64,000 nt of DNA from a phage: the sequence record PZ452602.1. One strand, written 5' to 3'. A program made the translations under genes and the position numbers. A model generated the notes under the pieces. That model made no database searches. It worked only from the letters and a program-made list of their open reading frames with translations, and was not told where the DNA came from. Positions 11,714 through 50,385 of this stretch are shown piece after piece. Positions within the stretch are counted from its first letter, which is position 1. Every line of letters starts with the position of its first letter.

Positions 11714-11751
11714 AATTAATTATACCACATCCTTGTGGTAAAGTAAACTAC
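11714..11751 (-). promoter_or_regulatory. T4-type early promoter (GTTTAC-N18-TATAAT) overlapping gene 39 stop
   Basis: Minus strand GTAGTTTACTTTACCACAAGGATGTGGTATAAT. Confidence 0.7.
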
Positions 11752-13568
11752 TGGCTCATCCATTCTTTACGAAGGTCAGCATTATCTCCCATGAGCATTT
11801 CAAAAAGCTCTTTCCAGTTCTCAGGAAGTTTAACAACATCATATACTGGATTTTGAATCATCTCACGATATTCAGATTTTTCCAAAGAGCCAAGTCCCTT
11901 AATATAACGGATGCTATGTTTAGGTAGAGCATCTTTAGCACTCTCATATTCAGCGACTGTATAAAACCATTCTTGTTTTTTACCGACCTGAGCGATGATT
12001 ACAGGAGTTTTGACAAAGCGAATTCGTCCTTGCTCAAACAGTTCTGGCCAATTACTAAAAAATCCAAGAAGAGAAGGATAAATGCTTCCTAAACCATCAT
12101 GGTCAGCATCGGTCATAATAGCAATATTATGATAATTCAAGTTTTCAGCTTTTTCACCAAGAACTAATCCAGTGATTGCGCAAATATCAAATAGTTCTTT
12201 GTTTTTAAGCATATCGGCATATGACATACCCCAGCTATTAAGAACTTTACCGCGCAATGGATAACCACCATGAAGTTCTTTATCACGAACATCAATAAGA
12301 TATCCGATAGCAGAATCACCCTCAGTCAAGAAAAGAGTAGTATCAGCATCTTTACCACAAAGATTCGCTTTAATATGTTTATGAACCTTAGCTTTAGAAG
12401 CCTTTTTAGCTGCTTTAGTTTCTGCTGCTTTTTCTGCCGCTAATTTACGAGCCAAGGCAGCTTCAATAATTGGCATTAAAATTGCTTCATTGTTTAAAAT
12501 AGCGCGTGAAATCTTTTTAGCATCAAGTTGAATATGACTACGAATTTCACCAAATGGAGAAGTCAAACGCTCTTTAGTTTGAGAATCAAATCGCATGTTT
12601 TTCATATCACGAACAAACATAACGATAGTCAAACATTCTTTAACACGTGCTTTAGTTACATCAATTTTGAACTTACGTTTGATTTGTGGAATAAGGTCTT
12701 CACAAATATCATCCATAACACAGTCAATGTGATGGCCACCATTCTTAGTATGAATATTATTGACGTACGTCAACTGACGAAAACCATCCGGTGAACGACC
12801 AACCGCAATAGAACAATTTTCTTGTTCTTGAACGATAGCATGTTCATCATACTGTCGTGCGTATTTCTTAAAATTGCCCTGAACCTTTTTACCATTAAAG
12901 GTAAATTGAATATCAGGATAAACAACAGCAAGTGTCTGGAGACGATCTAATGTAATGTCAAGATAAACTTGGGACAGCTCATTAGTTTCAAATGACATAA
13001 AATCAGGAATGAAAGTAACACGAGTTCCTTTCCATTTTCCAGGAATATCTTCCCATGATTTATTTTCCATGCCATTTGAACAACGAACTACAATATTATT
13101 TTGACCATCACCAGTTTCACCAACAAACATCACAGAAAAAATGTTTGTCAAACTAGAACCAACACCGTTCATACCGCCAGTGACGCGTTCTTTATCATCA
13201 CCGAAGTTACCACCTGCTTTTGGAATAGTCCATGCGGCAACAGGACCAGGAATTTCTTCACCGGTAGGTGTTTTAACCATCGCTTGTGGAATACCGCGAC
13301 CGTTATCTTCAACTGTTACTTGATTGTTTTTAATAGTAACATTAATTTTATTTGCGAATTTAAACTTAGTACGAATACCTTCATCTACTGAGTTATCGAT
13401 AATTTCATCAATAAGCTTAACAAGACCAGGTACATACTGAACACTTTCCCATTTACCAAACAGAAAGCGCTCATGCATTTCATTAGCAGAAGAGCCAATA
13501 TACATGCCGCTACGCTTTTTGATATGTTCAATATCGCTCAGAATTTTAATTTCATTCTTAATCATCAC
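11748..13568 (-). CDS. 39: DNA topoisomerase II large subunit (GyrB-like), uninterrupted gp39+gp60 equivalent
   Basis: 606 aa; GHKL ATPase N-terminus (IDNSVDEG, NGRGIP) and TOPRIM region (LTEGDSA); T4 has this split into 39 and 60. Confidence 0.93.
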   Translation of the reverse strand: MMIKNEIKILSDIEHIKKRSGMYIGSSANEMHERFLFGKWESVQYVPGLVKLIDEIIDNSVDEGIRTKFKFANKINVTIKNNQVTVEDNGRGIPQAMVKTPTGEEIPGPVAAWTIPKAGGNFGDDKERVTGGMNGVGSSLTNIFSVMFVGETGDGQNNIVVRCSNGMENKSWEDIPGKWKGTRVTFIPDFMSFETNELSQVYLDITLDRLQTLAVVYPDIQFTFNGKKVQGNFKKYARQYDEHAIVQEQENCSIAVGRSPDGFRQLTYVNNIHTKNGGHHIDCVMDDICEDLIPQIKRKFKIDVTKARVKECLTIVMFVRDMKNMRFDSQTKERLTSPFGEIRSHIQLDAKKISRAILNNEAILMPIIEAALARKLAAEKAAETKAAKKASKAKVHKHIKANLCGKDADTTLFLTEGDSAIGYLIDVRDKELHGGYPLRGKVLNSWGMSYADMLKNKELFDICAITGLVLGEKAENLNYHNIAIMTDADHDGLGSIYPSLLGFFSNWPELFEQGRIRFVKTPVIIAQVGKKQEWFYTVAEYESAKDALPKHSIRYIKGLGSLEKSEYREMIQNPVYDVVKLPENWKELFEMLMGDNADLRKEWMSQ

Positions 13569-16038: not shown

Positions 16039-16539
16039 CTAGCTTACACGAACATTAATCACTGCGCTGCGAGGAACTACGGAGTACTCTCCAGCATGAA
16101 CTACATTAAGAAGTTCAACGCCATCTTCAATCCACTGGTCAGTTACCCAACCGCCAATCGGATTCGCGAATGGACGACGAATATAAACTGCCTTACACAA
16201 CAAATCAGTCGGGTCTTCAATTTTTTCAACTGGCGTTACATACATAGAAACTAAATCCATATCAATATGGGATTTTTCTTGTTCTTCTTTTTCAATTTCT
16301 GTCAATAAATTGAAATCTTCTTCATAGATGATGAATGATGATACCCTTCCATAATAGTTTCTAATTTCCATGTACACTGTACCAATGAGAATTCCGCTAT
16401 TAACACTAATAACAGTAAAAGGATATCCGCCAGTTGTACCAAGAAGTTCCCAAAACTTGCTATCAGTCGTATTCGACATTGTCTGGAAATCAATGTCAGA
16501 TGGTTTTTTCATTTGATACGTAGTATTAATTTTAATCAT
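16039..16539 (-). CDS. MotB-family protein (paralog 2)
   Basis: 166 aa; C-terminal motif TDQWIEDGVELLNVV shared with paralog 1. Confidence 0.55.
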   Translation of the reverse strand: MIKINTTYQMKKPSDIDFQTMSNTTDSKFWELLGTTGGYPFTVISVNSGILIGTVYMEIRNYYGRVSSFIIYEEDFNLLTEIEKEEQEKSHIDMDLVSMYVTPVEKIEDPTDLLCKAVYIRRPFANPIGGWVTDQWIEDGVELLNVVHAGEYSVVPRSAVINVRVS

Positions 16540-16549
16540 AATTTTCTCT

Positions 16550-17054
16550 TTAGTCTAAGGTAATAAAGCCTTTTAGTTCGGCATGAGATTTGCGGAACAT
16601 TACTTGATGCCCGCCAACGATAACTTGGTCATCTGGTACTTCGTATACAGCAAGATAAAATCCTTTCGAAGCTAATTCTTCACGCTCTTCTCGTGTGAAC
16701 CATCTCATCATATCATATTCGCTAGCGAAAGCAAAATGATAAAGAGCTATAAACCATCCGGGAATATAATGATCTACGCCTACATATTCTTCTTTCTCAA
16801 AGTTAGTATTAATTGCTATATTAGCATTTTTAACTAATAATTTGTCTTCGTGCGGAAGAGGAATTCTTTTATTATCATTACTATGATGCATAAAATTAGG
16901 TCTGTCATAACCTACGTGTAATAACCACTCTTCGCTCCATGAATCTATTATACTCCTGTATGGCGTTATTTGAACACAAAGATCTCGACGTATTGTTATA
17001 GCATCTTCATAATTAAGAATACTAAACGATGATTCAACTCGATAAATTTTCATT
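16550..17054 (-). CDS. hypothetical early protein
   Basis: Track ORF trimmed to internal Met MKIYRVESS... after SD GAGGATAAT, because an early promoter lies in the extended 5' part. Confidence 0.5.
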
Positions 17055-17077
17055 TTATTATCCTCAGTAGCTATGGT

Positions 17078-17115
17078 GTTATAATACCACAACTAACCGA
17101 GGAAGTAAACAACTT
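17078..17115 (-). promoter_or_regulatory. T4-type early promoter (GTTTAC-N18-TATTAT)
   Basis: Minus strand GTTGTTTACTTCCTCGGTTAGTTGTGGTATTAT. Confidence 0.65.
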
Positions 17116-17116
17116 T

Positions 17117-17800
17117 TTATCGTTTAGTTGGAAGAGATAGAGGATCGCATTCTTCCTCTGATGGAGCGTCTTCAAGACCCATAGCATAGCGCAAAGCATA
17201 CTTCATCATCAGGATGTCTTTCGCACAGTCATGAATAGAATCATGTGCAACGAATCCATCTAAAGTTCCCTTTGGAAGAGGACATGTGGTCATATCACGA
17301 ACAAGTAGAAGTGCTTCAATTCTGGTACGAATATCACGCTGATTCCAGAATTTACACGGTTCTAACTTAAATGTATCAAGCTCATTCTCGGAAACGCCAT
17401 TAAGACGTTGAATATCGCGAATGAGATCGACTAAAATTGGAAAATCAAACGACATTCCACGGCACCAGCCTTGAGATTTCCAAGGATCGATATTATGTGC
17501 ATTGATGTAATCGTTGAATTTTGCAATACCATCAATGGTGCTTACATCTTCATCGGATGGTGCAATATTTTTTCGAGCTTCAGGAGACTGATTTTTCCAC
17601 CATTCGATAGTGCTTTTAGTAAAAAGACGATGTCCTTTTTGGCTTTTTAAATCAAATTTGATTTTAATGCCACGTGAAACTAATTCATCAAATGTTTCAA
17701 CAACTTCTGGGTTAGGGTCAAAGGCAATAACAGCCAAATCAATAACAGCTGCTTTTTCACCGCTTCCCATTGTTTCAAAATCTATAATAAAATCAAACAT
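17117..17800 (-). CDS. dexA: exonuclease A DexA (DEDD 3'-5' exonuclease)
   Basis: 227 aa as recalled for T4 DexA; N-terminal FDFIIDFETMG exonuclease motif. Confidence 0.9.
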   Translation of the reverse strand: MFDFIIDFETMGSGEKAAVIDLAVIAFDPNPEVVETFDELVSRGIKIKFDLKSQKGHRLFTKSTIEWWKNQSPEARKNIAPSDEDVSTIDGIAKFNDYINAHNIDPWKSQGWCRGMSFDFPILVDLIRDIQRLNGVSENELDTFKLEPCKFWNQRDIRTRIEALLLVRDMTTCPLPKGTLDGFVAHDSIHDCAKDILMMKYALRYAMGLEDAPSEEECDPLSLPTKR

Positions 17801-23341: not shown

Positions 23342-23813
23342 TTGTTTTACCTAAAACGATAGTATGGACACCGTCAAATTCATGAATTTTTAGCAAATTT
23401 GGATTTAAATTATTCCATAAAGAGGTAATAAAATATGATAGCGCACTTTCGTCCGTAATTATAAATTTATTTCCCTTATCAATTTTCCAGTCATATATTG
23501 AATCATATGAATAGAAGGATAACGGTTTATTATTATAGTATGCTTCAGCAACATCAATATAGTTAGATTTAGTAAATGCTTGAATTGCCATAAATGGAGA
23601 ATTTTGTACAGTTTCAATAATTCCGATCTTTTTAAGTTTTATTTCAACATCTTCTGGAACTGGCATTGAAATAAAATCTTCTACTAGATACATGTCATTG
23701 TCATATCTTTTATCAATCATTACTGCTACTGTAATTGGAACATCCTTGACAAACGCCATACTAATACTATTGATAGACATTTCAAATAAAATCGCTTCCA
23801 TAATTTTCCTCAA
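23316..23813 (-). CDS. hypothetical protein
   Basis: 165-aa ORF. Confidence 0.55.
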
Positions 23814-24151
23814 TCACAAGATGTAGATGAACAACCAGAATCACAAGAACTTCCACATGAATCGCCCGTCAATACATGAACAGGAACATTAGTATCATAT
23901 GAATCAGAACTAGACTGTGTATTCTGTGCATTAGATGATGTAGTAGGTACTGACCAGCGCCAAGGATTTTTATAATATTCTTGGGCTTCTTCATAAGTCA
24001 TAGTAACTGCTTCTACTGTTCCATCTCCCATATAAACATACTCAACTACAGTTAAAGGAAGGTAGTCATTTGAAATAGGAACTACACCTTCTCCAGGAGT
24101 CGTAGAGAAAAAATCTGTAAAGAAACTTTTAAACCAATTAAAGATAAACAT
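23810..24151 (-). CDS. hypothetical protein with Ser/Cys-rich C-terminal tail
   Basis: 113 aa; C-terminus [18 protein letters not shown]. Confidence 0.55.
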
Positions 24152-24357
24152 TACAAAAAGCCTCTCTTAAATTCGACTTGCTTCTCGCCATAATCATATC
24201 GAATCTCTGCATTAAATTCGACAGAACCATCTGCGTACATCATAAATGAATGCACAACAACTTCTGTAGACCATGGCTGTAGTTCATATTTCTTCATTAC
24301 ATGTCGTGAAATGATAATATCTAAATCTTCATTTGGTTTAATCCAGCGATTTAACAT
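24151..24357 (-). CDS. small hypothetical protein
   Basis: 68-aa ORF, start overlaps neighbour stop. Confidence 0.5.
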   Translation of the reverse strand: MLNRWIKPNEDLDIIISRHVMKKYELQPWSTEVVVHSFMMYADGSVEFNAEIRYDYGEKQVEFKRGFL

Positions 24358-24421
24358 AGTGCTCTCCTCTATAAGATAATTCTATTATACCATACTCATT
24401 TTGGAAAGTAAACCATTTAAA

Positions 24422-24448
24422 TGAAAAAAGGACTCCCGAAGGAGTCCT
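24422..24448 (-). terminator. rho-independent terminator downstream of soc (AGGACUCC-UUCG-GGAGUCCU + UUUUUU)
   Basis: 8-bp stem, UUCG loop, U6 tail on minus strand. Confidence 0.75.
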
Positions 24449-24453
24449 TGAAT

Positions 24454-24699
24454 TTATTCACCAGTTACTTTCCACAAATCTTCGTTTGCAGTAATCCATT
24501 CAGTACGTTGATTTTCTTCATATACTGTAGAATATGCTGCTTTTTCTGAAGGGAATATCTGGTAATGAGCACCAGAAATTTTGTGAACGTCAGAATAAAG
24601 AGGGAAAGCTACAGAAATTTCCTTTCCTTCAATTTTCTTATTTCCATCTAATTTCTGCTCAAATGTTTTGATATTAACATAACCGCGAGTACTAGCCAT
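24454..24699 (-). CDS. soc: small outer capsid protein Soc
   Basis: 81 aa, MASTRGYVNIKTFEQKLDGNKKIEGKEISVAFPLYSDVHKISGAHYQIF...; near-identical to T4 Soc as recalled. Confidence 0.95.
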   Translation of the reverse strand: MASTRGYVNIKTFEQKLDGNKKIEGKEISVAFPLYSDVHKISGAHYQIFPSEKAAYSTVYEENQRTEWITANEDLWKVTGE

Positions 24700-24729
24700 G
24701 TAATTCTCCTTTTATTTAAATTACATGAT

Positions 24730-24737
24730 TATTTATA
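24730..24737 (-). promoter_or_regulatory. late promoter TATAAATA upstream of soc
   Basis: Exact TATAAATA on minus strand about 30 nt upstream of soc ATG. Confidence 0.6.
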
Positions 24738-24782
24738 ATAAATTCTCGCGGCTTTTAAGTCGTCGTTTATTTAAACGAGCTA

Positions 24783-25301
24783 TTAATAGCCTCGATCTTG
24801 ACGAGCGAAGTTTTCGGCATTTTTCAGATAATAAAGTTTAAAGATTTCTTCAGCTGACATTCCAAGAGCAATGAATTTATTCATGAAAAAGTGAAATTGG
24901 TCAATTAGTTCAAATTTAATTTCAAGTTGATCTTCAGGAGATAAATCTTGAATTTTCTTGGATTGCATTTCAGAATAACGTTTCTTCCAAGGTTTCCATA
25001 CAGCAGAAGCTTCTTTTTCACCATTACTCATACCACCAAGAGAAGTATATAGCTCGCGAGTTTCATCTGCGATATAATCGTCTTGGTTTCGCAACCAAGC
25101 AAGAACTTCTCCTGCAGTTTCAAGTGAATCAGGATGACGATTTGTTTCTGGTTTATCATTAGCCAAACGAATCTGTAAATGCCGCTGCATGTCAAGCATA
25201 ACCTGCAATGGGTCAATACTGTGCATAATATACTCAGCATATGCACGATTTGCTTTATCAACACCTTCGATCAAATGAGCACATTCATTAAAGTGAGCCA
25301 T
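24783..25301 (-). CDS. 56: dCTP pyrophosphatase gp56 (MazG-like)
   Basis: Track ORF trimmed to MAHFNECAHLIEG...; about 172 aa; position soc-56-dam. Confidence 0.88.
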   Translation of the reverse strand: MAHFNECAHLIEGVDKANRAYAEYIMHSIDPLQVMLDMQRHLQIRLANDKPETNRHPDSLETAGEVLAWLRNQDDYIADETRELYTSLGGMSNGEKEASAVWKPWKKRYSEMQSKKIQDLSPEDQLEIKFELIDQFHFFMNKFIALGMSAEEIFKLYYLKNAENFARQDRGY

Positions 25302-25361
25302 TATTTTTCCTTTCAATTCATTAATAAGTTAAATAATTATATCATTTGAGTATGTAAGCAA

Positions 25362-26701
<1,340 letters not shown>

Positions 26702-28185: not shown

Positions 28186-28542
28186 TTAACCTCTATTCAT
28201 AAAAGCATTAAAAATTTGGTCATCAATAGATGGCGCAGTAATATTTTCTGCATCATTTAGCAAATCATTAATTTCATCGGATAGCATAACGCATGTACCT
28301 TTATTTCCTGTAATTGTTACTGCGCAATTACGAACGTTTTCTTTATTAAATTTTAGGTTAATATTTTCGTAATGAAAATCCTTTAATGCTGAATATATTT
28401 TTAAAATAAAATTGTCTTTTACTACAATAAACCCAACCTCACTATTAAAACGTGGTTCATGGAAACTGTAATAAACCTTTTCATCTATAAAATCGTATGA
28501 AATTTTTTCCATTTTTAAATATGAAAATTCAGAACTATACAT
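28186..28542 (-). CDS. hypothetical protein (61.x)
   Basis: 118-aa ORF. Confidence 0.55.
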   Translation of the reverse strand: MYSSEFSYLKMEKISYDFIDEKVYYSFHEPRFNSEVGFIVVKDNFILKIYSALKDFHYENINLKFNKENVRNCAVTITGNKGTCVMLSDEINDLLNDAENITAPSIDDQIFNAFMNRG

Positions 28543-28554
28543 ACTAACCTCTAA

Positions 28555-30845: not shown

Positions 30846-31208
30846 TTAAAAGAATTTAAACTTTTTCTTTGACCTTTTATTAAATGCATCTTGTAGTTGC
30901 ATTGTAATACATTTTTCTACATGAGGAGCTAACTCAGCTTTTCTTTCTTGGTCAAGAACAGCAAAGTCCATTACGACTTTTCCATCAACCCAATCTAATT
31001 TTGTCACATACACAATGTGTGTAGAACCATCTTCTAGTTTAATGACAATCTCCTGGATAACATTTTCCATGGCAGATTTAATTATCTTAAGAGATTCATT
31101 AAAAAGACGTTCTTTTCTTTCTTCTTCCCCCTCCGAAGAGGGGGATTCATCGATAATTTCTAGATCTAAATCTAAATCATCTTTATTCATTAAATTCTTC
31201 CATATCAC
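30846..31208 (-). CDS. 40: gp40-position protein (head assembly-associated), acidic N-terminus
   Basis: 120 aa between uvsX and 41. Confidence 0.55.
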   Translation of the reverse strand: MIWKNLMNKDDLDLDLEIIDESPSSEGEEERKERLFNESLKIIKSAMENVIQEIVIKLEDGSTHIVYVTKLDWVDGKVVMDFAVLDQERKAELAPHVEKCITMQLQDAFNKRSKKKFKFF

Positions 31209-32364
31209 TTAACTGCTCGAGGTCAGTTTCTAAATCAGCAGCTGATTTACTTTTACTTTCTGGAGATTTAAATTTTTCAACCTTTGAGTTAATCAATTCA
31301 TCAACTTCAGCTTCAACAATTTCATTACTATCAATAGCACCTAACTGATAAGCACGTTTAATAGCATCTCGGAATGGTTGATGCTTAAATAAAGGACCCC
31401 AGAATGTGACGCAGTTGGTATCTTTTGCACGCCAAGATTTTTCTTCGCGAATCATCTCACCGGTTTCTTCATCAAGAAATTCACGAGCATACCAACCATT
31501 TTTAGGTTTTACCACGAATCCTAATTCTAGAGCCATATCTAACAATCCAGAATAAGGATCGATACCGCCGTCAAATTTAACATCAATAAAGAATTTACTT
31601 TTTTCTTTAACGGTACGAGATTTTTCTACATTTAGAACAAATTGATACCCTTGAAGATCAGAACCATCTTTAATCTGACGTTTACCGATAATGAATACGG
31701 TATCAGCCGAATACATTACGCCTGTACCACCTGTCATCACGGTTTTACTAAACATTTCAATTGTTTCAATTGTATGGTTAACCGCAACGCATGGAATATT
31801 TTTAATGCTAAAGTAAGGAGTAACAATACGGAATAATGACTTCAGTGATTTAGCACGAGTCATATCTGCCACAGATTTTTCATTCAAGGCATCTTCCGTT
31901 TCTTTCTTAGAAGCCATATTACCGATTGAGTCGATGAATACAATGACTTTTTCACCGCGCTCAATAGCTTCAAGCTGGTTCACCATATCAATTTTCAGCT
32001 GTTCAACTGACTGAATCGGCGTATGAATTACTCGTTCCGGGTCAACTCCCATGGATCGCAAATAAGCTGGAGTAATACCAAATTCGCTATCATAGAATAG
32101 ACAAACCGCGTCAGGATATTTGTTCAAATATGCCGCAACCATAGTCAAAGACATATTTGATTTAAAGTGTTTAGAAGGCCCTGCGAAAATAGTTAAACCA
32201 GACTGCATACCGCCATCAATCGCACCAGAAATAGCAATATTAAGCATTGGAATTTTTGTACGAATTACATCCTTTTCATTAAAGAATTTAGATGTAGTCA
32301 GTTCAGCAGTCATTTTAGAAGTGGAAGCTTTAATCAAACGGGATTTTAAATCTGCAATAGACAT
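31183..32364 (-). CDS. uvsX: UvsX recombinase (RecA-like)
   Basis: 393 aa; MSIADLKSRLIKASTSK... and acidic C-terminus SDMEEFNE match T4 UvsX as recalled. Confidence 0.95.
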   Translation of the reverse strand: MSIADLKSRLIKASTSKMTAELTTSKFFNEKDVIRTKIPMLNIAISGAIDGGMQSGLTIFAGPSKHFKSNMSLTMVAAYLNKYPDAVCLFYDSEFGITPAYLRSMGVDPERVIHTPIQSVEQLKIDMVNQLEAIERGEKVIVFIDSIGNMASKKETEDALNEKSVADMTRAKSLKSLFRIVTPYFSIKNIPCVAVNHTIETIEMFSKTVMTGGTGVMYSADTVFIIGKRQIKDGSDLQGYQFVLNVEKSRTVKEKSKFFIDVKFDGGIDPYSGLLDMALELGFVVKPKNGWYAREFLDEETGEMIREEKSWRAKDTNCVTFWGPLFKHQPFRDAIKRAYQLGAIDSNEIVEAEVDELINSKVEKFKSPESKSKSAADLETDLEQLSDMEEFNE

Positions 32365-32441
32365 TCATTTTTTCCATAGGCATCATTATATTTTCCTCAC
32401 TGGTTAAAGATAGAGTAATTATAACATAATAAATTTAGGCA

Positions 32442-33290
32442 TTAATCAACTGCTATTGGATGAATAGCATTAAACTTATGAAATGCTTCTGATTTTTCTT
32501 TACGCGAAACGCACATGCGAAGAACCTTTAATGGCTCGTCTTCTTCACCCAACGATTTTCGTTTTTCAATATTAGAAGTTTTCCAACGAGCTTGCTCTGG
32601 AAACTCTCTATTGATTTGCTCAAGCGCTCTATTATGTTTAGAATTACTACGAATTGAACTACACCCGCCAGGAGCTTGTGCTTTTCCAGATACAACCAGA
32701 TATTTGAACAAGGCCAAATGCGGATAACCTTGATTAATTAAATTGAGAAATGCATACATATCTTCGCACAAATCAATTTTTCCATACCCAATTTGTTCTG
32801 TCGTAAGTTTTCCAAGGTCATACCATGTATTCGTGAATCCATATGAATTTTCACGATAATTACCCCAAGATGAAGTAATTTTAAAAATTGGTAGGCGAGC
32901 ATGACCGTGATAATACCCACAATCCATGGCATCTTCGACGTATTGAATCAATTCATAGAACTGTTCACGAGTCAATTGATTGACTTTATCCACACAACGA
33001 CGATCATCTCTTTTTCGCATTGAACTCATACGAATAGTAGTATCATCGTCAATCATCCAGATTCGTTGACCTGCATACATATCAGTAATTGCTTTACGAG
33101 TACCGGCAATTCCGTTTACATCATCAGGAATAGTTATAATTTTAGCTCTAGACCCATAGGCATCATAATAAGCTTTTTCTTCATGTTCACGCACTACAAT
33201 ATGGGGTTCATAATCAGTCGGAAACATATCAAGGGCAGAAACTGCCCCGACACGCTGATAACTTGGAATTACGAATTGAATCATTTCCAC
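32442..33290 (-). CDS. GT-A-type glycosyltransferase (DxD motif) at the locus occupied by beta-gt in T4; candidate beta-alpha-glucosyltransferase
   Basis: 282 aa; IWMIDDDTTI DxD motif; unlike T4 beta-gt (351 aa) as recalled; between uvsX and 42. Confidence 0.6.
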   Translation of the reverse strand: MEMIQFVIPSYQRVGAVSALDMFPTDYEPHIVVREHEEKAYYDAYGSRAKIITIPDDVNGIAGTRKAITDMYAGQRIWMIDDDTTIRMSSMRKRDDRRCVDKVNQLTREQFYELIQYVEDAMDCGYYHGHARLPIFKITSSWGNYRENSYGFTNTWYDLGKLTTEQIGYGKIDLCEDMYAFLNLINQGYPHLALFKYLVVSGKAQAPGGCSSIRSNSKHNRALEQINREFPEQARWKTSNIEKRKSLGEEDEPLKVLRMCVSRKEKSEAFHKFNAIHPIAVD

Positions 33291-34021
33291 TCACCTTTAT
33301 AGTCTTTTTTCACAATATGAGTTTCGCCAGTATTCCACCAATGATCAACCAAGTAAAAATGACGAGAATATACATGAAGACTTCCGACATTCCATATAAT
33401 AGAACCTGCTTTATACTGACGAGTTGAATCGCCTGCATTCAAATCAGATACTAATTTATCTAATACGTATTTTTGCCATGCATAATCATTACGGAATCCG
33501 AAGACCACGTCATTTGAGCGCATGCTTACTACTGCATTGACTTTCTTATCACGAATCAGGTACTGTACTGTATTAGTACACATGAAATCTGACATACCAT
33601 CTTTATTGTAGTCAAATTGCATGGATGGACGAGTATAAATCATGATACCACGTCGAGAATCAGGATTTTGACCAAGTTCAGCTAAACACATATCATACTG
33701 GGCATAGTTATCTTCTGACCAAATAGCCCAACCATAATTCGAGTTAATTTCGCCTTTAGAAGATGCTACTTGTTGCCAAATCTTCGGTGTTTCACCTGGA
33801 ATATCTTTAACAAACAAACTCTTAGATTTATACCATTCAAGTTCGCGCTGAATGTATTCATCATTAAGAGCGCCAAAAATAAACGGTTCATCTGCTACAA
33901 ATGATGCGCCAATAATTTCAATAGTTTTAACACCGGTTTTATCAACTACGAAATCTTTTTCTTTTAATGCAAGCCCCAAATGAAGACGGATTTCTTCAAC
34001 TGTCATAGAGTCACTAATCAT
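33281..34021 (-). CDS. 42: dCMP hydroxymethylase gp42
   Basis: 246 aa as recalled for T4 gp42; thymidylate-synthase-like fold. Confidence 0.95.
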   Translation of the reverse strand: MISDSMTVEEIRLHLGLALKEKDFVVDKTGVKTIEIIGASFVADEPFIFGALNDEYIQRELEWYKSKSLFVKDIPGETPKIWQQVASSKGEINSNYGWAIWSEDNYAQYDMCLAELGQNPDSRRGIMIYTRPSMQFDYNKDGMSDFMCTNTVQYLIRDKKVNAVVSMRSNDVVFGFRNDYAWQKYVLDKLVSDLNAGDSTRQYKAGSIIWNVGSLHVYSRHFYLVDHWWNTGETHIVKKDYKGEWK

Positions 34022-34174
34022 TTAAACCTCAATTGATACATTCATATTTAACTTGTAACAGTAATAAACCCCAACCTAAAATAATAGTTGGAATCATAAG
34101 AGGAACCGTTACACTATAGTATATACTTATTATAATCATCAAGATTAAAAGCAACACTGCTATAATTTTGCTTT

Positions 34175-34426
34175 TCATTCCTTCTCTCTGATGATAATTA
34201 CCTGATTTGGTTGTGCAGACTTTTTAGTTTCACCCGCAATTGACCAAATAAATGTAATAAACCAACCAATAATTGACCAGTTAAACAGTAAAGATGTGAA
34301 AAAGATTCCTACTGTCGATTTTGACCCACGCATCAAGGCGATAAACCATGGAAGCATGTATATAATAATAGCCAACACACCTGAAACTAAAACCATAAAA
34401 ATTGAACCTGCTACTAAAGTTTCCAT
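34175..34426 (-). CDS. imm: immunity protein Imm (superinfection immunity), membrane protein
   Basis: 83 aa, two TM helices; position between 42 and 43. Confidence 0.85.
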   Translation of the reverse strand: METLVAGSIFMVLVSGVLAIIIYMLPWFIALMRGSKSTVGIFFTSLLFNWSIIGWFITFIWSIAGETKKSAQPNQVIIIREKE

Positions 34427-34433
34427 GTTTTCC

Positions 34434-34814
34434 TCACTTAGTCAAATTTTTTACACATGAATTATAAGAATTCACTACATACTCCATCGGAGCATTTTTA
34501 CCGGTACGCCATTGGTAATTATTAGCCCAATTAGCCCAAATTTCGGCGCAGTAGTTTTCAATTTTTTCTTCGCGTGTAATTACATCAGAATTACGATATG
34601 CTTGAGCAGATTCATCTGGACGAATAGCTTCGTCAAAATTCGCCTGCATTTGTTCTACTGTTTGCTTTGGAGCTTCTTTATAACACTTGACATTAGGATT
34701 ATAAAATTTGCTTGAACAGTTTACAATTTTTCCTACATCAGACTGATTTACTACCGGTCCTTGAGCTACACAACCAGTAAGACCTAATGCAATAACCAAA
34801 ATAGCGATTTTCAT
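34434..34814 (-). CDS. putative lipoprotein (imm.1 position)
   Basis: 126 aa; signal peptide with lipobox LTGC. Confidence 0.6.
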   Translation of the reverse strand: MKIAILVIALGLTGCVAQGPVVNQSDVGKIVNCSSKFYNPNVKCYKEAPKQTVEQMQANFDEAIRPDESAQAYRNSDVITREEKIENYCAEIWANWANNYQWRTGKNAPMEYVVNSYNSCVKNLTK

Positions 34815-34824
34815 AATAATTTCC

Positions 34825-35073
34825 TCAAATGCAAGTAGTAATTACTCCAGTAGTGCTTATGCAGGTATTACCCATTTGCACACCTAAAGATCCATTTGTA
34901 TTCACATGAAGATTATCATCAATTTTAACTGATATTTTACCATTAGTGTGAATAACGGTGCTAGATTCAATCACAGGTTGAGTATCATTTTCAACACTAA
35001 CAAATGGAACTGCTGCGAATGCAACTAAACAAACTGCTAAGCATCCCATAACAATTTTCATTTTATTCTCCAA
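34825..35073 (-). CDS. small secreted/membrane protein
   Basis: 82 aa with N-terminal hydrophobic signal; driven by early promoter. Confidence 0.55.
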   Translation of the reverse strand: MENKMKIVMGCLAVCLVAFAAVPFVSVENDTQPVIESSTVIHTNGKISVKIDDNLHVNTNGSLGVQMGNTCISTTGVITTCI

Positions 35074-35090
35074 ATCCGTATTAGTTGATA

Positions 35091-35130
35091 GTTGTATAGT
35101 ACCATGGAAGAACAGTCTTGTAAACAGTTT
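35091..35130 (-). promoter_or_regulatory. T4-type early promoter (GTTTAC-N18-TACTAT)
   Basis: Minus strand TTTTCACAAAACTGTTTACAAGACTGTTCTTCCATGGTACTAT. Confidence 0.7.
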
Positions 35131-35204
35131 TGTGAAAATTTTTTAGGGAATTCTAAAGGTCCAGAATCATCTGTTTTTCATAAGTATAGATTTATATTAC
35201 TTGT

Positions 35205-35229
35205 ATGAAAAAGGGACCCGGAGGTCCCT
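35205..35229 (-). terminator. terminator hairpin downstream of gene 43 (GGGACC-UCCG-GGUCCC + U-run)
   Basis: + strand gaaaaaGGGACCCGGAGGTCCC; U-run on minus strand. Confidence 0.65.
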
Positions 35230-35241
35230 AGATTTATTCTA

Positions 35242-37938
35242 TCAGCCAAACAGGAAGTCTAACGAAGCTTTTTCTTCATAGTCCATGCCAGCCGATTCAC
35301 ACATACCCGCAAGCGGTTTAACAAACGATTTTTGGAACAAAGTTGAGTAGTCAATCCAAGACAGTACGTCAGAACGAATTTCTTTTGGAAGTTCTGTACC
35401 CGACGGCCAAGCAATGCATTTGTCACCAAATGGATTTCCTTCACGCAATGGAAGAACCATTACTTTATTTCCATCCAAAATTGGAGCTACACCTAAACCG
35501 CTAACAGCTCGACGATAAGTTAGCACACCACGAATATGGAACGGACATTTAAATCCTGGCCAACCTTTATCATCATATTTCGCTATATCGTTCGCAGTTT
35601 TTACTTCAGCAATAACTTTATAGTCAAGTTGACGATATTCTTTCTCGAAGTTCTTGTAATATTCTTGGACAGACTCTTCACCTTCCTGAAGAATACGACG
35701 AATACTTTCTTCGAGAGCTTCTTGGACCGCTTTAGGCGTTGAACTCTGCTGAGTTTCCATACCCATGATTTTTAGATGTGGTTCAGCAAAACGCTTATCT
35801 TCCATATCATAAACGTTCAGAGCATAACGCTTTTTCGCTTTCCAAAATCCACCAACGCCCTTTGAACCAAGTGGAGGGCAAGAAATAGCTTCACGGTCCA
35901 TATGCATCAGATGCTCGCGGTTATTCATATAATCACATAACTCACGATATGCAACATCAATCATAGGTTCCATCTTTTTCTTACCGAATTGATTCATGAA
36001 TTCAACTAAATCGTTCTGCTCTTTGAATCGGTCAAGACCAACTTTTTCAATAACTTTATCTACACAAACATATACTGAATCAGTATCACCTGCTGCAATG
36101 AAATCTTCACCATTAGTTCCGCATACTTTATTCAGATATTCATTAATTTTACGAGCAATCCACTGAATACCGACTTGACCAAAAATTGTGATAGCAGTAG
36201 CATTTCGCAAATCATAGTAACGGAAATGAATATTACCAAGAGCACCGTAAAGACTGTTAATAAGAATTTTACGGTTCAGCTGATTTGTGTTAGCAAGTGT
36301 AGCTGCTTTTTCACATTCCTCAATCAGACTATTGAGAACAGATTCAGTATAATTCGATAGCTCATTTAAGAAATCATCACTGAACTTAACATATCGTTCA
36401 ACTTCTGGTTTAGTTGAACAGGACCCTGCGCCTTTCATAATAATCTTTTTAATAGCTTCGGCATTCATTTCTTCAGCGAACATTTTCTTTTTCCAATCTT
36501 TACGCTGGAAAAATACTTTAGCGATTTCCTTTGGAATGATACCTTCTTGATGCTTATCATACATCCATCCATTCGGAGAACAAGAATATTCATCGCTCGG
36601 TTTAGGAGCTGTTCCTGCGATATATTCATGAATTGGATGAACTTTAAACTGTCCACGAATAGTCTCAGGACTAATGTTAACCTGACGAATAATGCTCGGA
36701 TACAGAGACGTCAAGTCAAAACTCATAATATATCGACGAGCAATTGGTTTAGGTTCAAACACAAATGCACCCGGAAAACTCTGTTTAACGTGTGAACCTT
36801 GCTGAGGAATAACCTTATGTTCACCTTTCAATGAGTTAAAAATAATAGCATCCCAAGTTTTAATAGGACTCATTACACCGGAAAAAGGCATTTTAGCGTA
36901 ATAAGACATACTTAAAACTAGATCGATAAACCCGCGAATTTTATCAATTGCTTGAACTGATTCTACGTCAATGATGTTATAACTAATGTATCGTTGATGA
37001 TTAGTCTCACGAAGTTTATTAATAGGACCATCATACGGTAATTTACCTTTTTTGGTTTCATGCTGAGCAACTGATTCCAAAGAGAATGACGGCAAATTAG
37101 TAAATGCGAATTTCTTATACAAATCTAAATAATCAAGAATAGATACGCCATCAATAGAATAAATTTCTTTGCTGCCGTACATATTTTGAATTAGTTTGGA
37201 TTTTACCCGACCGATTGGAGAGAAACGTTTCATACTGCGTTCACCTAGAATCATTTTAACACGATTCATGATATACGGAACGTCAAACCCCTCAATATTC
37301 CAACCAGTAAAAATAGCAGGTCGTTTCTGTTCCCAGAGATTGATATATTCCATGAGCATATCACGCTCATTATCGAATGGCATATAAATTACTCGGTCAA
37401 GAATTTCTTGAGGAACTTCATCACCACCTTCACAGTCAAGCTTAGCAGCTAACTTTGCATCCCATTTTGATACTGAACCGTACATTGAATTCAAAAGGTC
37501 GAAAACATAAAAACGATCGTCAATTGAATCGTAATGAGTGATAGCATCAATTTCATATTCAGCTTTCATTGGGTCAGGAAATTTATCACCAGTAACCTCA
37601 ATGTCACAGTTAGCTACACGAACAAATTTTCGGTCATAAACAATTTCTGAACCGTATGTATCACTGATATAAGCGAGTTTAAAATCGTTCATACCGAGAG
37701 CTTCGAGACCGATGTCTTCCATTCGTTTCATCCAATCTCGAGCATCTTTCATTGATGGAAATTTTTGAGGAGCGCAGTTTTTACCATAGATGTCTTTGTA
37801 TTTTGACTCTTCCTTACAATGCCTAAACATAGTCGGAAGATATTCTACTTCACGAGTACGTTCCTTTCCGTTTTCATCAATATAACGTTCAACAATGTTA
37901 TTTCCGACTGTTTCAATAGAGATATAAAATTCTTTCAT
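35242..37938 (-). CDS. 43: DNA polymerase gp43 (family B)
   Basis: 898 aa as recalled for T4 gp43; exo motif FDIE region and pol motif DTDS. Confidence 0.97.
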   Translation of the reverse strand: MKEFYISIETVGNNIVERYIDENGKERTREVEYLPTMFRHCKEESKYKDIYGKNCAPQKFPSMKDARDWMKRMEDIGLEALGMNDFKLAYISDTYGSEIVYDRKFVRVANCDIEVTGDKFPDPMKAEYEIDAITHYDSIDDRFYVFDLLNSMYGSVSKWDAKLAAKLDCEGGDEVPQEILDRVIYMPFDNERDMLMEYINLWEQKRPAIFTGWNIEGFDVPYIMNRVKMILGERSMKRFSPIGRVKSKLIQNMYGSKEIYSIDGVSILDYLDLYKKFAFTNLPSFSLESVAQHETKKGKLPYDGPINKLRETNHQRYISYNIIDVESVQAIDKIRGFIDLVLSMSYYAKMPFSGVMSPIKTWDAIIFNSLKGEHKVIPQQGSHVKQSFPGAFVFEPKPIARRYIMSFDLTSLYPSIIRQVNISPETIRGQFKVHPIHEYIAGTAPKPSDEYSCSPNGWMYDKHQEGIIPKEIAKVFFQRKDWKKKMFAEEMNAEAIKKIIMKGAGSCSTKPEVERYVKFSDDFLNELSNYTESVLNSLIEECEKAATLANTNQLNRKILINSLYGALGNIHFRYYDLRNATAITIFGQVGIQWIARKINEYLNKVCGTNGEDFIAAGDTDSVYVCVDKVIEKVGLDRFKEQNDLVEFMNQFGKKKMEPMIDVAYRELCDYMNNREHLMHMDREAISCPPLGSKGVGGFWKAKKRYALNVYDMEDKRFAEPHLKIMGMETQQSSTPKAVQEALEESIRRILQEGEESVQEYYKNFEKEYRQLDYKVIAEVKTANDIAKYDDKGWPGFKCPFHIRGVLTYRRAVSGLGVAPILDGNKVMVLPLREGNPFGDKCIAWPSGTELPKEIRSDVLSWIDYSTLFQKSFVKPLAGMCESAGMDYEEKASLDFLFG

Positions 37939-44671: not shown

Positions 44672-45874
44672 TTATTTTGTAATAATGTCAAACTGTTCTT
44701 TAAAGCAGAAGCTTGAATCTTGATGCTGATACAAAAATTCATACGCTTTTTCTCGCTCACGGTCATAAAGAGCTCGGTCAGATGACAGTTCTTTAATACG
44801 CTCGAATGTTGATTCCATATCATTTTCATCAAACCAAACGATACCGCTATCATGCGAAATTAGCGGAGTATTATCAACACGGAATTTTAAATTTTCGCCA
44901 GTAGATTTCCAAAATACCGGAATTGTTCCACACGCGCCAAGCTCGAGATGAGTATATTCTAAAGAACGTTGTAGATATTTTTTATCCAACTTACTCAGCT
45001 GATAACCAAAACCGGATTTACTCATACGTTCAAGCATTTCGCTATTTACATAACGGTCAAGAATTTGCGTTGGCAAATTAGGAGCAATTTTAATTTGGTC
45101 TACTTGATGAAGACGATAATACTCGTATGGAATTCCTTTTTCTTTAATGGGAATGAACGCTGGAGAACGTTCCAGACCTTCCATAATAGTACTTAGTCCT
45201 GCAGGTTTAAGATGTTTTTCATGAAAATCAAACATCTGATAAAAACCTTTCCATGTAGTCGTACGACCAATCCAACGGTTAACATTCATGTTAATTTCAG
45301 AAACATCTTTCCAGTAGGTTGATCGAACCTTCGCAATATCCATAGGAGGCTGAAAGTTGTATACGGTCGGTGCTTCTTCAATATCATCAAACAGAGAAAC
45401 TGTTTCTGGATACCATTCTTTCATCAAAACTTTATTAAAATCGCCATTATCAGAATGACTAAAAATAACATCAGCTCGACGAACAGTTTCTTCTAATCCC
45501 AAATTTCGACGCAAAGAAAGAGAAGAATGGTCATGCTGATAAACTACAACACGAACCGAAGGTTTAATGTTATCAATAATTTTTTTATAGTTATTAATAG
45601 TGTCTTCTTCAACTGAAGTAGCAGGAACTGAATTGATAATTAGAATATCACAATCATTTACCAGCTTAAGTGTTTTATCATATTCTTTTGCCAATAAAAC
45701 CGGAATTGAAAATGATTTATAATCATGCGCGCAATTACGAGTAAATGATTTATCTTTAGCATAAACCAAAGTCACTTCATGACCATTTTTAATAAACCAA
45801 TCACGTTGCTCGAGTGAGAATTTTGTTACACCACAACCTTCAAGACCTCGAGCCATAAAAATACATACTTTCAT
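44672..45874 (-). CDS. a-gt: DNA alpha-glucosyltransferase
   Basis: 400 aa; N-terminus CIFMARGLEGCGVTKFSLEQRDWFIKNGHEVTLVYAKDKSF matches T4 a-gt as recalled. Confidence 0.95.
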   Translation of the reverse strand: MKVCIFMARGLEGCGVTKFSLEQRDWFIKNGHEVTLVYAKDKSFTRNCAHDYKSFSIPVLLAKEYDKTLKLVNDCDILIINSVPATSVEEDTINNYKKIIDNIKPSVRVVVYQHDHSSLSLRRNLGLEETVRRADVIFSHSDNGDFNKVLMKEWYPETVSLFDDIEEAPTVYNFQPPMDIAKVRSTYWKDVSEINMNVNRWIGRTTTWKGFYQMFDFHEKHLKPAGLSTIMEGLERSPAFIPIKEKGIPYEYYRLHQVDQIKIAPNLPTQILDRYVNSEMLERMSKSGFGYQLSKLDKKYLQRSLEYTHLELGACGTIPVFWKSTGENLKFRVDNTPLISHDSGIVWFDENDMESTFERIKELSSDRALYDREREKAYEFLYQHQDSSFCFKEQFDIITK

Positions 45875-45926
45875 TTAATATCCTCTTTGTTTTGGTTTAT
45901 TTTACCAAAAATTTATAAAGCAATAT

Positions 45927-49914: not shown

Positions 49915-50385
49915 TTAATCATGTGTCCACACCCCATCGGTATTTGACCAAAGTCGCTGATTATCTGATCCTCGCCACAGCTTTTTGGTCGGAAGATTTT
50001 TCTCATACTTCCCATCAATAATAACATCAACATATTTAAGCATTTCTAGTTGTTTAATATCTTCAAACTTATATCCTGTCCACAACCAAATGCTTTTACT
50101 GGGATAAAGATTTTTTACTGTTTGAACAATGCAATGAATCACATCTCTGTTATCAGGATAAAGAGGGTCACCCCCAGTTATAGTTAATCCTTCTATATAA
50201 TCATTATTCAAACATTCAATTAATTGCTCTAGTGTCTCTCCAGTGAATGGAATACCATTTCTAGCATTCCATGTTGATTTATTATAACACCCTTCGCATT
50301 TATGCAAACAACCTGTAACGAAAAGAACGACCCTGCAACCAGGGCCATTCACAAAATCGCAAGGATAAAATCTATCATAATTCAT
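49915..50385 (-). CDS. nrdG: anaerobic ribonucleotide reductase activating protein NrdG (radical SAM)
   Basis: 156 aa; radical-SAM cysteine motif CLHKCEGC. Confidence 0.93.
   Translation of the reverse strand: MNYDRFYPCDFVNGPGCRVVLFVTGCLHKCEGCYNKSTWNARNGIPFTGETLEQLIECLNNDYIEGLTITGGDPLYPDNRDVIHCIVQTVKNLYPSKSIWLWTGYKFEDIKQLEMLKYVDVIIDGKYEKNLPTKKLWRGSDNQRLWSNTDGVWTHD

Follow-up and report, generated by a model that had tools for sequence, protein, structure and literature searches.

The beta-glucosyl-HMC-alpha-glucosyltransferase genes (ba-gt, also labelled ggt) of phages T2 and T6, reportedly cloned by Winkler and Rueger in 1993, occupy the same slot as the gene described here, overlap the gene 42 stop by the same ATGA and have the same partner, alpha-gt. 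The T2/T6 enzyme, a member of the TAGT family, makes 5-gentiobiosyl-methylcytosine (PMC13216743). The two phages differ in how far this reaction proceeds, with 70% alpha-glucosyl and 5% gentiobiosyl in T2 against 3% and 72% in T6 (PMC11078745). After deletion of ba-gt from T6, only alpha-glucosylated hmC was reported (the 75% figure being qualified there by 'presumably'), and the deletion made T6 more sensitive to Brig1, both in plaque assays and as purified DNA (PMC11078745, Nature 2024). HPLC/MS of the Durham Tequatrovirus phages that combine an alpha-GT with a TAGT at the site syntenic with T4 beta-gt showed alpha-5-gentiobiosyl-hmdC but not the beta-glucosyl form (PMC13390438, AEM 2026). 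Within that collection, Solly, NR1 and five others have approximately one-third hmdC and two-thirds gentiobiosyl-hmdC with a trace of alpha-glucosyl-hmdC, and EL, BGP and Geo have hmC, alpha-glucosyl-hmC and gentiobiosyl-hmC at roughly 1:2:2 (PMC13390438). The pairing of alpha-gt with beta-gt seen in T4 is rare, most phages carrying either an alpha-GT or a beta-GT together with a TAGT (PMC13216743).

The stretch of DNA analysed here (the window) comprises 64 kb of the approximately 167-kb phage genome of record PZ452602.1. Its gene between uvsX and gene 42 encodes a protein 99% identical over its full length to the T2 and T6 proteins of the same slot, differing at 2 positions from that of T2 and at 4 from that of T6. 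[quoted passage not shown] The protein matches PHROG 842, 'beta-glucosyl-HMC-alpha-glucosyltransferase', over its full length (E 2e-89, residues 2-277 on profile positions 3-269 of 270) and the Pfam TAGT model (TET-associated glycosyltransferase, PF20691) with a score of 38.9 bits, above the gathering cut-off of 27.5, covering 2-205 of 205. It is 100% identical to ba-gt of Solly (vB_Eco_Solly, OY720021) and a single residue (D24N) from that of NR1 (LR990704), and the flanking DNA of these two phages is 98.4-98.5% identical to that of the window. A homologue is present by tblastn in 689 of 50,697 phage records, which together with the PHROG 842 match excludes a chance ORF. Copies at least 95% identical occur in 472 phage records, many of them annotated as beta-glucosyl-HMC-alpha-glucosyltransferase and overwhelmingly from Tequatrovirus phages of Escherichia, Shigella and Yersinia, and a second group at 60-80% identity is found in relatives infecting Klebsiella, Enterobacter and Citrobacter. 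The ba-gt of the window is an already known gene, annotated in many genomes and found here at its usual position, and its combination with alpha-gt is the majority, already annotated state of Tequatrovirus genomes, a point on which the preliminary description was silent. The value of the window is one of correct annotation only and it touches no open question.

That annotation requires one correction. The ORF between uvsX and gene 42 is real, but its product, given previously as 282 aa, is probably two codons shorter. The ORF list holds a 282-aa mechanical ORF (32442..33290, minus strand) with a GTG start, which corresponds to the ba-gt CDS plus two more codons up to the GTG at 33290. From the local sequence, translation most likely begins at ATG 33284 and yields 280 aa rather than 282. 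The sequence 5' of this start reads AAAGGTGAGTGGAAATGATT. The ATG shares ATGA with the gene 42 stop and stands at a workable spacing from a Shine-Dalgarno-like GGTGAG element, which GTG 33290 directly abuts. An ATG start is also annotated for ba-gt in the T2, T6 (AP018814), NR1, Solly, EL and RB32 records, where the CDS measures 843 nt, or 840 nt in T6. GTG 33290 was rejected as the start on the grounds of the Shine-Dalgarno spacing, the overlap with the gene 42 stop and all related annotations. The ATGA overlap also implies co-transcription of gene 42 and ba-gt and makes translational coupling probable. A promoter and terminator scan of 32000..35300 gave a signal no better than that of shuffled sequence. 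The features of the window that bear on this and the following points are collected in Table 1.

Table 1. Coordinates of ba-gt, its motifs, its pathway partners and other features of the window.
Feature	Coordinates	Strand	Evidence or remark
Unsplit gene 39/60, single 606-aa topoisomerase ORF	11748..13568	-	Split in T4, with mobA
Other sites without T4 homing-endonuclease insertions	24738..24782, 45866..45889, ~50365..50385, 51661..51664		
Gene 56, dCTPase/dUTPase	24783..25316 (mechanical ORF limits)	-	88% DNA identity to T4 16270..17711
dam, D12-class methyltransferase	25362..26141	-	E 8e-51
186-aa ORF, phrog_8706 (function unknown)	26141..26701	-	Shares one base with dam
323-nt segment without T4 homology	28231..28553		Downstream of gene 61/61.1
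uvsX recombinase, downstream flank of the slot	31183..32364	-	Pfam T4_UVSX_C and RecA
Segment without T4 DNA homology	32353..33298	.	blastn of window against T4, with T4 annotation
ba-gt CDS (beta-glucosyl-HMC-alpha-glucosyltransferase, TAGT family)	32442..33284	-	280 aa plus stop; PHROG 842, PF20691, T2/T6/Solly identity
Codons E174-D175, candidate 'ED' catalytic base	32760..32765	-	D175 in 43/49; start of helix 174-184 (model)
Codons D79-D80-D81, DxD-type metal/nucleotide-sugar motif	33042..33050	-	Invariant 49/49; after strand 74-78 (model)
Codon R11 (CGT), N-terminal IPSYxR nucleotide-binding loop	33252..33254	-	R11 in 49/49; kept in the window
Gene 42, dCMP hydroxymethylase (hmC precursor)	33281..34021	-	PF00303, thymidylate-synthase family; 96% DNA identity to T4
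49-aa hydrophobic ORF, phrog_3610 ('42.1' in RB32)	34029..34178	-	Between gene 42 and imm
82-aa ORF, phrog_4189 (RB51ORF048 in T2)	34825..35073	-	Between imm.1 and gene 43
alpha-gt, DNA alpha-glucosyltransferase, 400 aa	44672..45874	-	Pfam AGT E 5e-236; PHROG 2888 E 8e-222

All the genes needed to make hmC and to convert it through alpha-glucosyl-hmC to gentiobiosyl-hmC are present in the window. Gene 42 and gene 56 would act together, with dCTP excluded and hmdCTP incorporated, to replace C by hmC in phage DNA; alpha-gt would place an alpha-glucose on hmC as the acceptor for ba-gt, which would then add a second glucose through a beta-1,6 linkage onto the alpha-glucose. The alpha-gt gene is intact, its product sharing 91% identity with T4 alpha-gt and differing from Solly alpha-gt at 3 residues. 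The true start of gene 56 is probably a few codons inside the ORF limits of Table 1, and the T4 stretch to which it aligns spans both gene 56 and dam. The Pfam dUTPase_2 match of gene 56 is weak, and the EL record names its homologue dCTP pyrophosphatase. Gentiobiosyl-hmC as the product is supported by the T6 ba-gt deletion (PMC11078745) and by HPLC/MS of Solly (PMC13390438). As the 64-kb window is without a T4-type beta-gt, beta-glucosyl-hmC is not expected. Since ba-gt and alpha-gt are both of the Solly type, the predicted virion DNA contains gentiobiosyl-hmC at about two-thirds and unglucosylated hmC at about one-third, with mono-alpha-glucosyl-hmC scarce. Judged from these near-identical characterised phages, on which the expected chemistry also rests, the pattern should be Solly- or T6-like with gentiobiosyl-hmC as the major modified cytosine.

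The presence of the gene alone does not fix the extent of modification, given that T2 has a near-identical gene and approximately 5% gentiobiosyl-hmC. Were the ba-gt of the window as inefficient as that of T2, the DNA would contain mostly mono-alpha-glucosyl-hmC and only a few percent gentiobiosyl-hmC. The T2 gene at 99% identity, with its low yield relative to the 72% of T6, is the precedent for such an outcome, and the EL-type phages are intermediate, EL sharing with the window both dam and the adjacent 186-aa ORF, which T2 also carries and Solly lacks. We nevertheless consider poor function improbable here. The window is without R11H and P251S, the two T2 substitutions, and retains the family-invariant R11; moreover its ba-gt is that of Solly, whose DNA is about two-thirds gentiobiosyl-hmdC and whose alpha-gt is almost the same. 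Compared with EL, ba-gt differs at 7 residues and alpha-gt at 35, whereas the corresponding counts for Solly are 0 and 3.

The T2 and T6 alleles deserve separate comment. T2 has H11 and S251 where the window has R11 and P251. The R11H change (CGT to CAT) is private to T2, being found in seven T2 records and the T2-like SV76, and RB32 has the T2 haplotype over the 86 nt aligned at the ba-gt start except for CGT in place of CAT at codon 11. Going by these alignments, R11H in T2 may be a hypomorphic allele behind the low gentiobiose content of this phage (approximately 5% compared with 72% in T6), and no statement of R11H as its cause was found in the literature searched. A more general proposal, that a few ba-gt substitutions, notably R11H, set the extent of di-glucosylation among the T-even phages and that the consensus allele found in the window is fully active, is speculative and we lean against it. 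If true, it would concern the ba-gt family and imply nothing unusual in the window itself. T6 has N40, G55 and H106 where the window has Y40, D55 and R106, and the DDD at residues 79-81 of the window, shared by T2 and by every one of the 49 aligned homologues, is shortened to DD in T6 (AP018814). Since T6 makes the most gentiobiosyl-hmC among the classic T-evens, one Asp of the triplet seems dispensable. In a further T6 record, MH550421, codon 10 of ba-gt is changed from CAG to TAG (Q10 stop) and a CDS of 786 nt is annotated from a downstream Met. The codon is intact in AP018814, and the stop in MH550421 could have arisen in a laboratory stock or through a sequencing error.

Comparison with T4 shows where the two genomes part. 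In T4 the slot between uvsX and gene 42 holds the 351-aa beta-gt, as the preliminary description had it, and according to the T4 annotation segA lies there too. By blastn, T4 homology stops at 32352, at the 5' end of uvsX, and restarts at 33299, within the final codons of gene 42; a segment of 946 nt thus stands in for 1941 nt of T4 (T4 23556..25496, comprising segA and beta-gt). The shared slot, and the labels 'b-gt' or 'putative beta-glucosyltransferase' given to the protein in some records, might suggest a diverged beta-glucosyltransferase of the T4 type, attaching one beta-glucose straight to hmC, a reading to which we attach almost no probability and which sequence and fold already refute. 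The claim that the window encodes an enzyme different from T4 beta-gt stands on a BLASTP E of only 2.2 between the two proteins, on the absence of a PF09198 match for the window protein under the same Pfam model that finds T4 beta-gt at E 9e-98, and on a GT-A rather than GT-B fold, GT-B being that of T4 beta-gt (PMC13216743); in addition, phages with ba-gt are without beta-glucosyl-hmdC. A T4-type beta-gt elsewhere was looked for by tblastn across the 64-kb window and rejected, the best match having an E of 1.9. A beta-gt in the rest of the approximately 167-kb genome is unlikely, none being known outside the uvsX–gene 42 slot.

The GT-A assignment derives from a predicted model. A PDB sequence search with the window protein alone gave nothing meaningful, and the family profile found as its best PDB match the GT2-like AvpGT at a sub-significant E of 0.037, over the N-terminal 90 residues only. 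Homologue searches yielded 11 proteins in the first instance and 52 in a second that used an alignment, and the family alignment contains 49 sequences with identities to the query of 13% to 77%. A single-sequence AlphaFold2 model was unusable (pLDDT 39.7) and was superseded by an alignment-based model with a pLDDT of 93.5 and a pTM of 0.91. In this model the fold is GT-A and not GT-B, with no arrangement of two Rossmann-like domains, and DDD directly follows beta-strand 4. The DxD motif IWMIDDDTTI, from which the preliminary description had read a GT-A-type enzyme, is present at residues 75-84 counted from the ATG, its DDD being invariant throughout the family alignment, as are R11 and R63. 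In the profile alignment D79-D81 coincide with the DDD of AvpGT, a GT2 enzyme. In inverting GT2 enzymes a helix begins with an 'ED' motif that supplies the catalytic base, and the position of D175 fits such a base, which makes E174-D175 a candidate by analogy. A beta linkage formed from UDP-alpha-glucose requires inversion, which also fits a GT2-like enzyme. The published AlphaFold3 model of the T6 TAGT is likewise GT-A and clusters as sister to GT2 rather than inside it, and among cellular representatives lies nearest to TarP (6H1J) (PMC13216743). With identity, synteny and partner genes added to family and fold, we hold with high confidence that the window gene is a T2/T6-type ba-gt, an inverting GT-A/GT2-like enzyme that would use UDP-glucose to add a beta-1,6 glucose and give gentiobiosyl-hmC. 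A GT-A glycosyltransferase with a target other than DNA, such as the host envelope or a protein, or with another sugar donor, is brought to mind by the closest solved structures, which act on teichoic acid, glycans or lipid-linked sugars, and by the eukaryotic relative GREB1, which glycosylates a protein, but can be given next to no credence because deletion of ba-gt from T6 alters the susceptibility of its DNA to Brig1, the ba-gt start overlaps the gene 42 stop inside the hmC pathway and gentiobiose has been measured in the DNA of Solly, which has the identical protein.

The consequences for restriction evasion and for sensitivity to glucose-specific nucleases that had been anticipated for this locus are documented in the literature, for Brig1 and for GmrSD/BrxU. 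Purified T6 DNA, which is mostly gentiobiosyl-hmC, is left undegraded by the alpha-glucosyl-hmC glycosylase Brig1 (PMC11078745), yet T6 is still restricted in vivo despite the resistance of its purified DNA. Enzymes of the GmrSD family still target the modification (PMC11078745, PMC13216743, PMC13390438). Per this published work, DNA containing gentiobiosyl-hmC rather than beta-glucosyl-hmC has an altered exposure to host defences. In practical terms, the predicted modification would guide the choice of restriction enzymes and sequencing chemistry for DNA of this phage.

Several other features of the window were observed in the comparison with T4. The region is without any of the homing-endonuclease insertions of T4, namely segF, segA, mobA, mobB, mobC and the nrdD intron with I-TevII. 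The 186-aa ORF adjoining dam has a weak, sub-threshold Pfam match to the DpnII restriction endonuclease (E 0.0099) and is present in 164 phage records, including T2 and EL. In some genomes its last 28 codons alone are left, and in T4 there is a gap of 309 nt at this place. The 'restriction enzyme-like gene' of PMC13390438 is probably this ORF. It is curious for a phage to carry a DpnII-like protein next to a GATC methylase. The 82-aa ORF sits in a 233-nt segment without T4 homology, the DNA of the 49-aa ORF is conserved in T4 and unannotated there, and at 28231..28553 another small ORF stands in place of T4 gene 61.2, an exchange also seen in T2, Solly and EL.

Set against the described systems, ba-gt of the window resembles T4 beta-gt in its genomic slot, in its UDP-glucose donor and in belonging to a pathway for glucosylated-hmC DNA, and the common donor together with the common beta-anomeric outcome implies that both enzymes invert. 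The two differ in that their proteins share no sequence similarity, in their GT-B and GT-A folds and in their acceptors, which are hmC itself for T4 beta-gt and alpha-glucosyl-hmC for ba-gt. To the cellular GT2 enzymes of the GT-A fold, TarP (6H1J), TarS, AvpGT (9JMA) and K4CP, the structural similarity of the predicted model is clear, although identity is only 8-16%, the acceptor of ba-gt is DNA and the aligned GT2 cores contain nothing equivalent to its C-terminal third (approximately residues 200-280). The Base-J glucosyltransferase of kinetoplastids and the GT domain of GREB1 are described as DNA-base glycosyltransferases akin to TAGT and of the same GT-A lineage (PMC7968844). The likeness of these two to ba-gt is drawn from that literature description, and they differ from it in acceptor, which is hmU in DNA for the Base-J enzyme and protein for GREB1.
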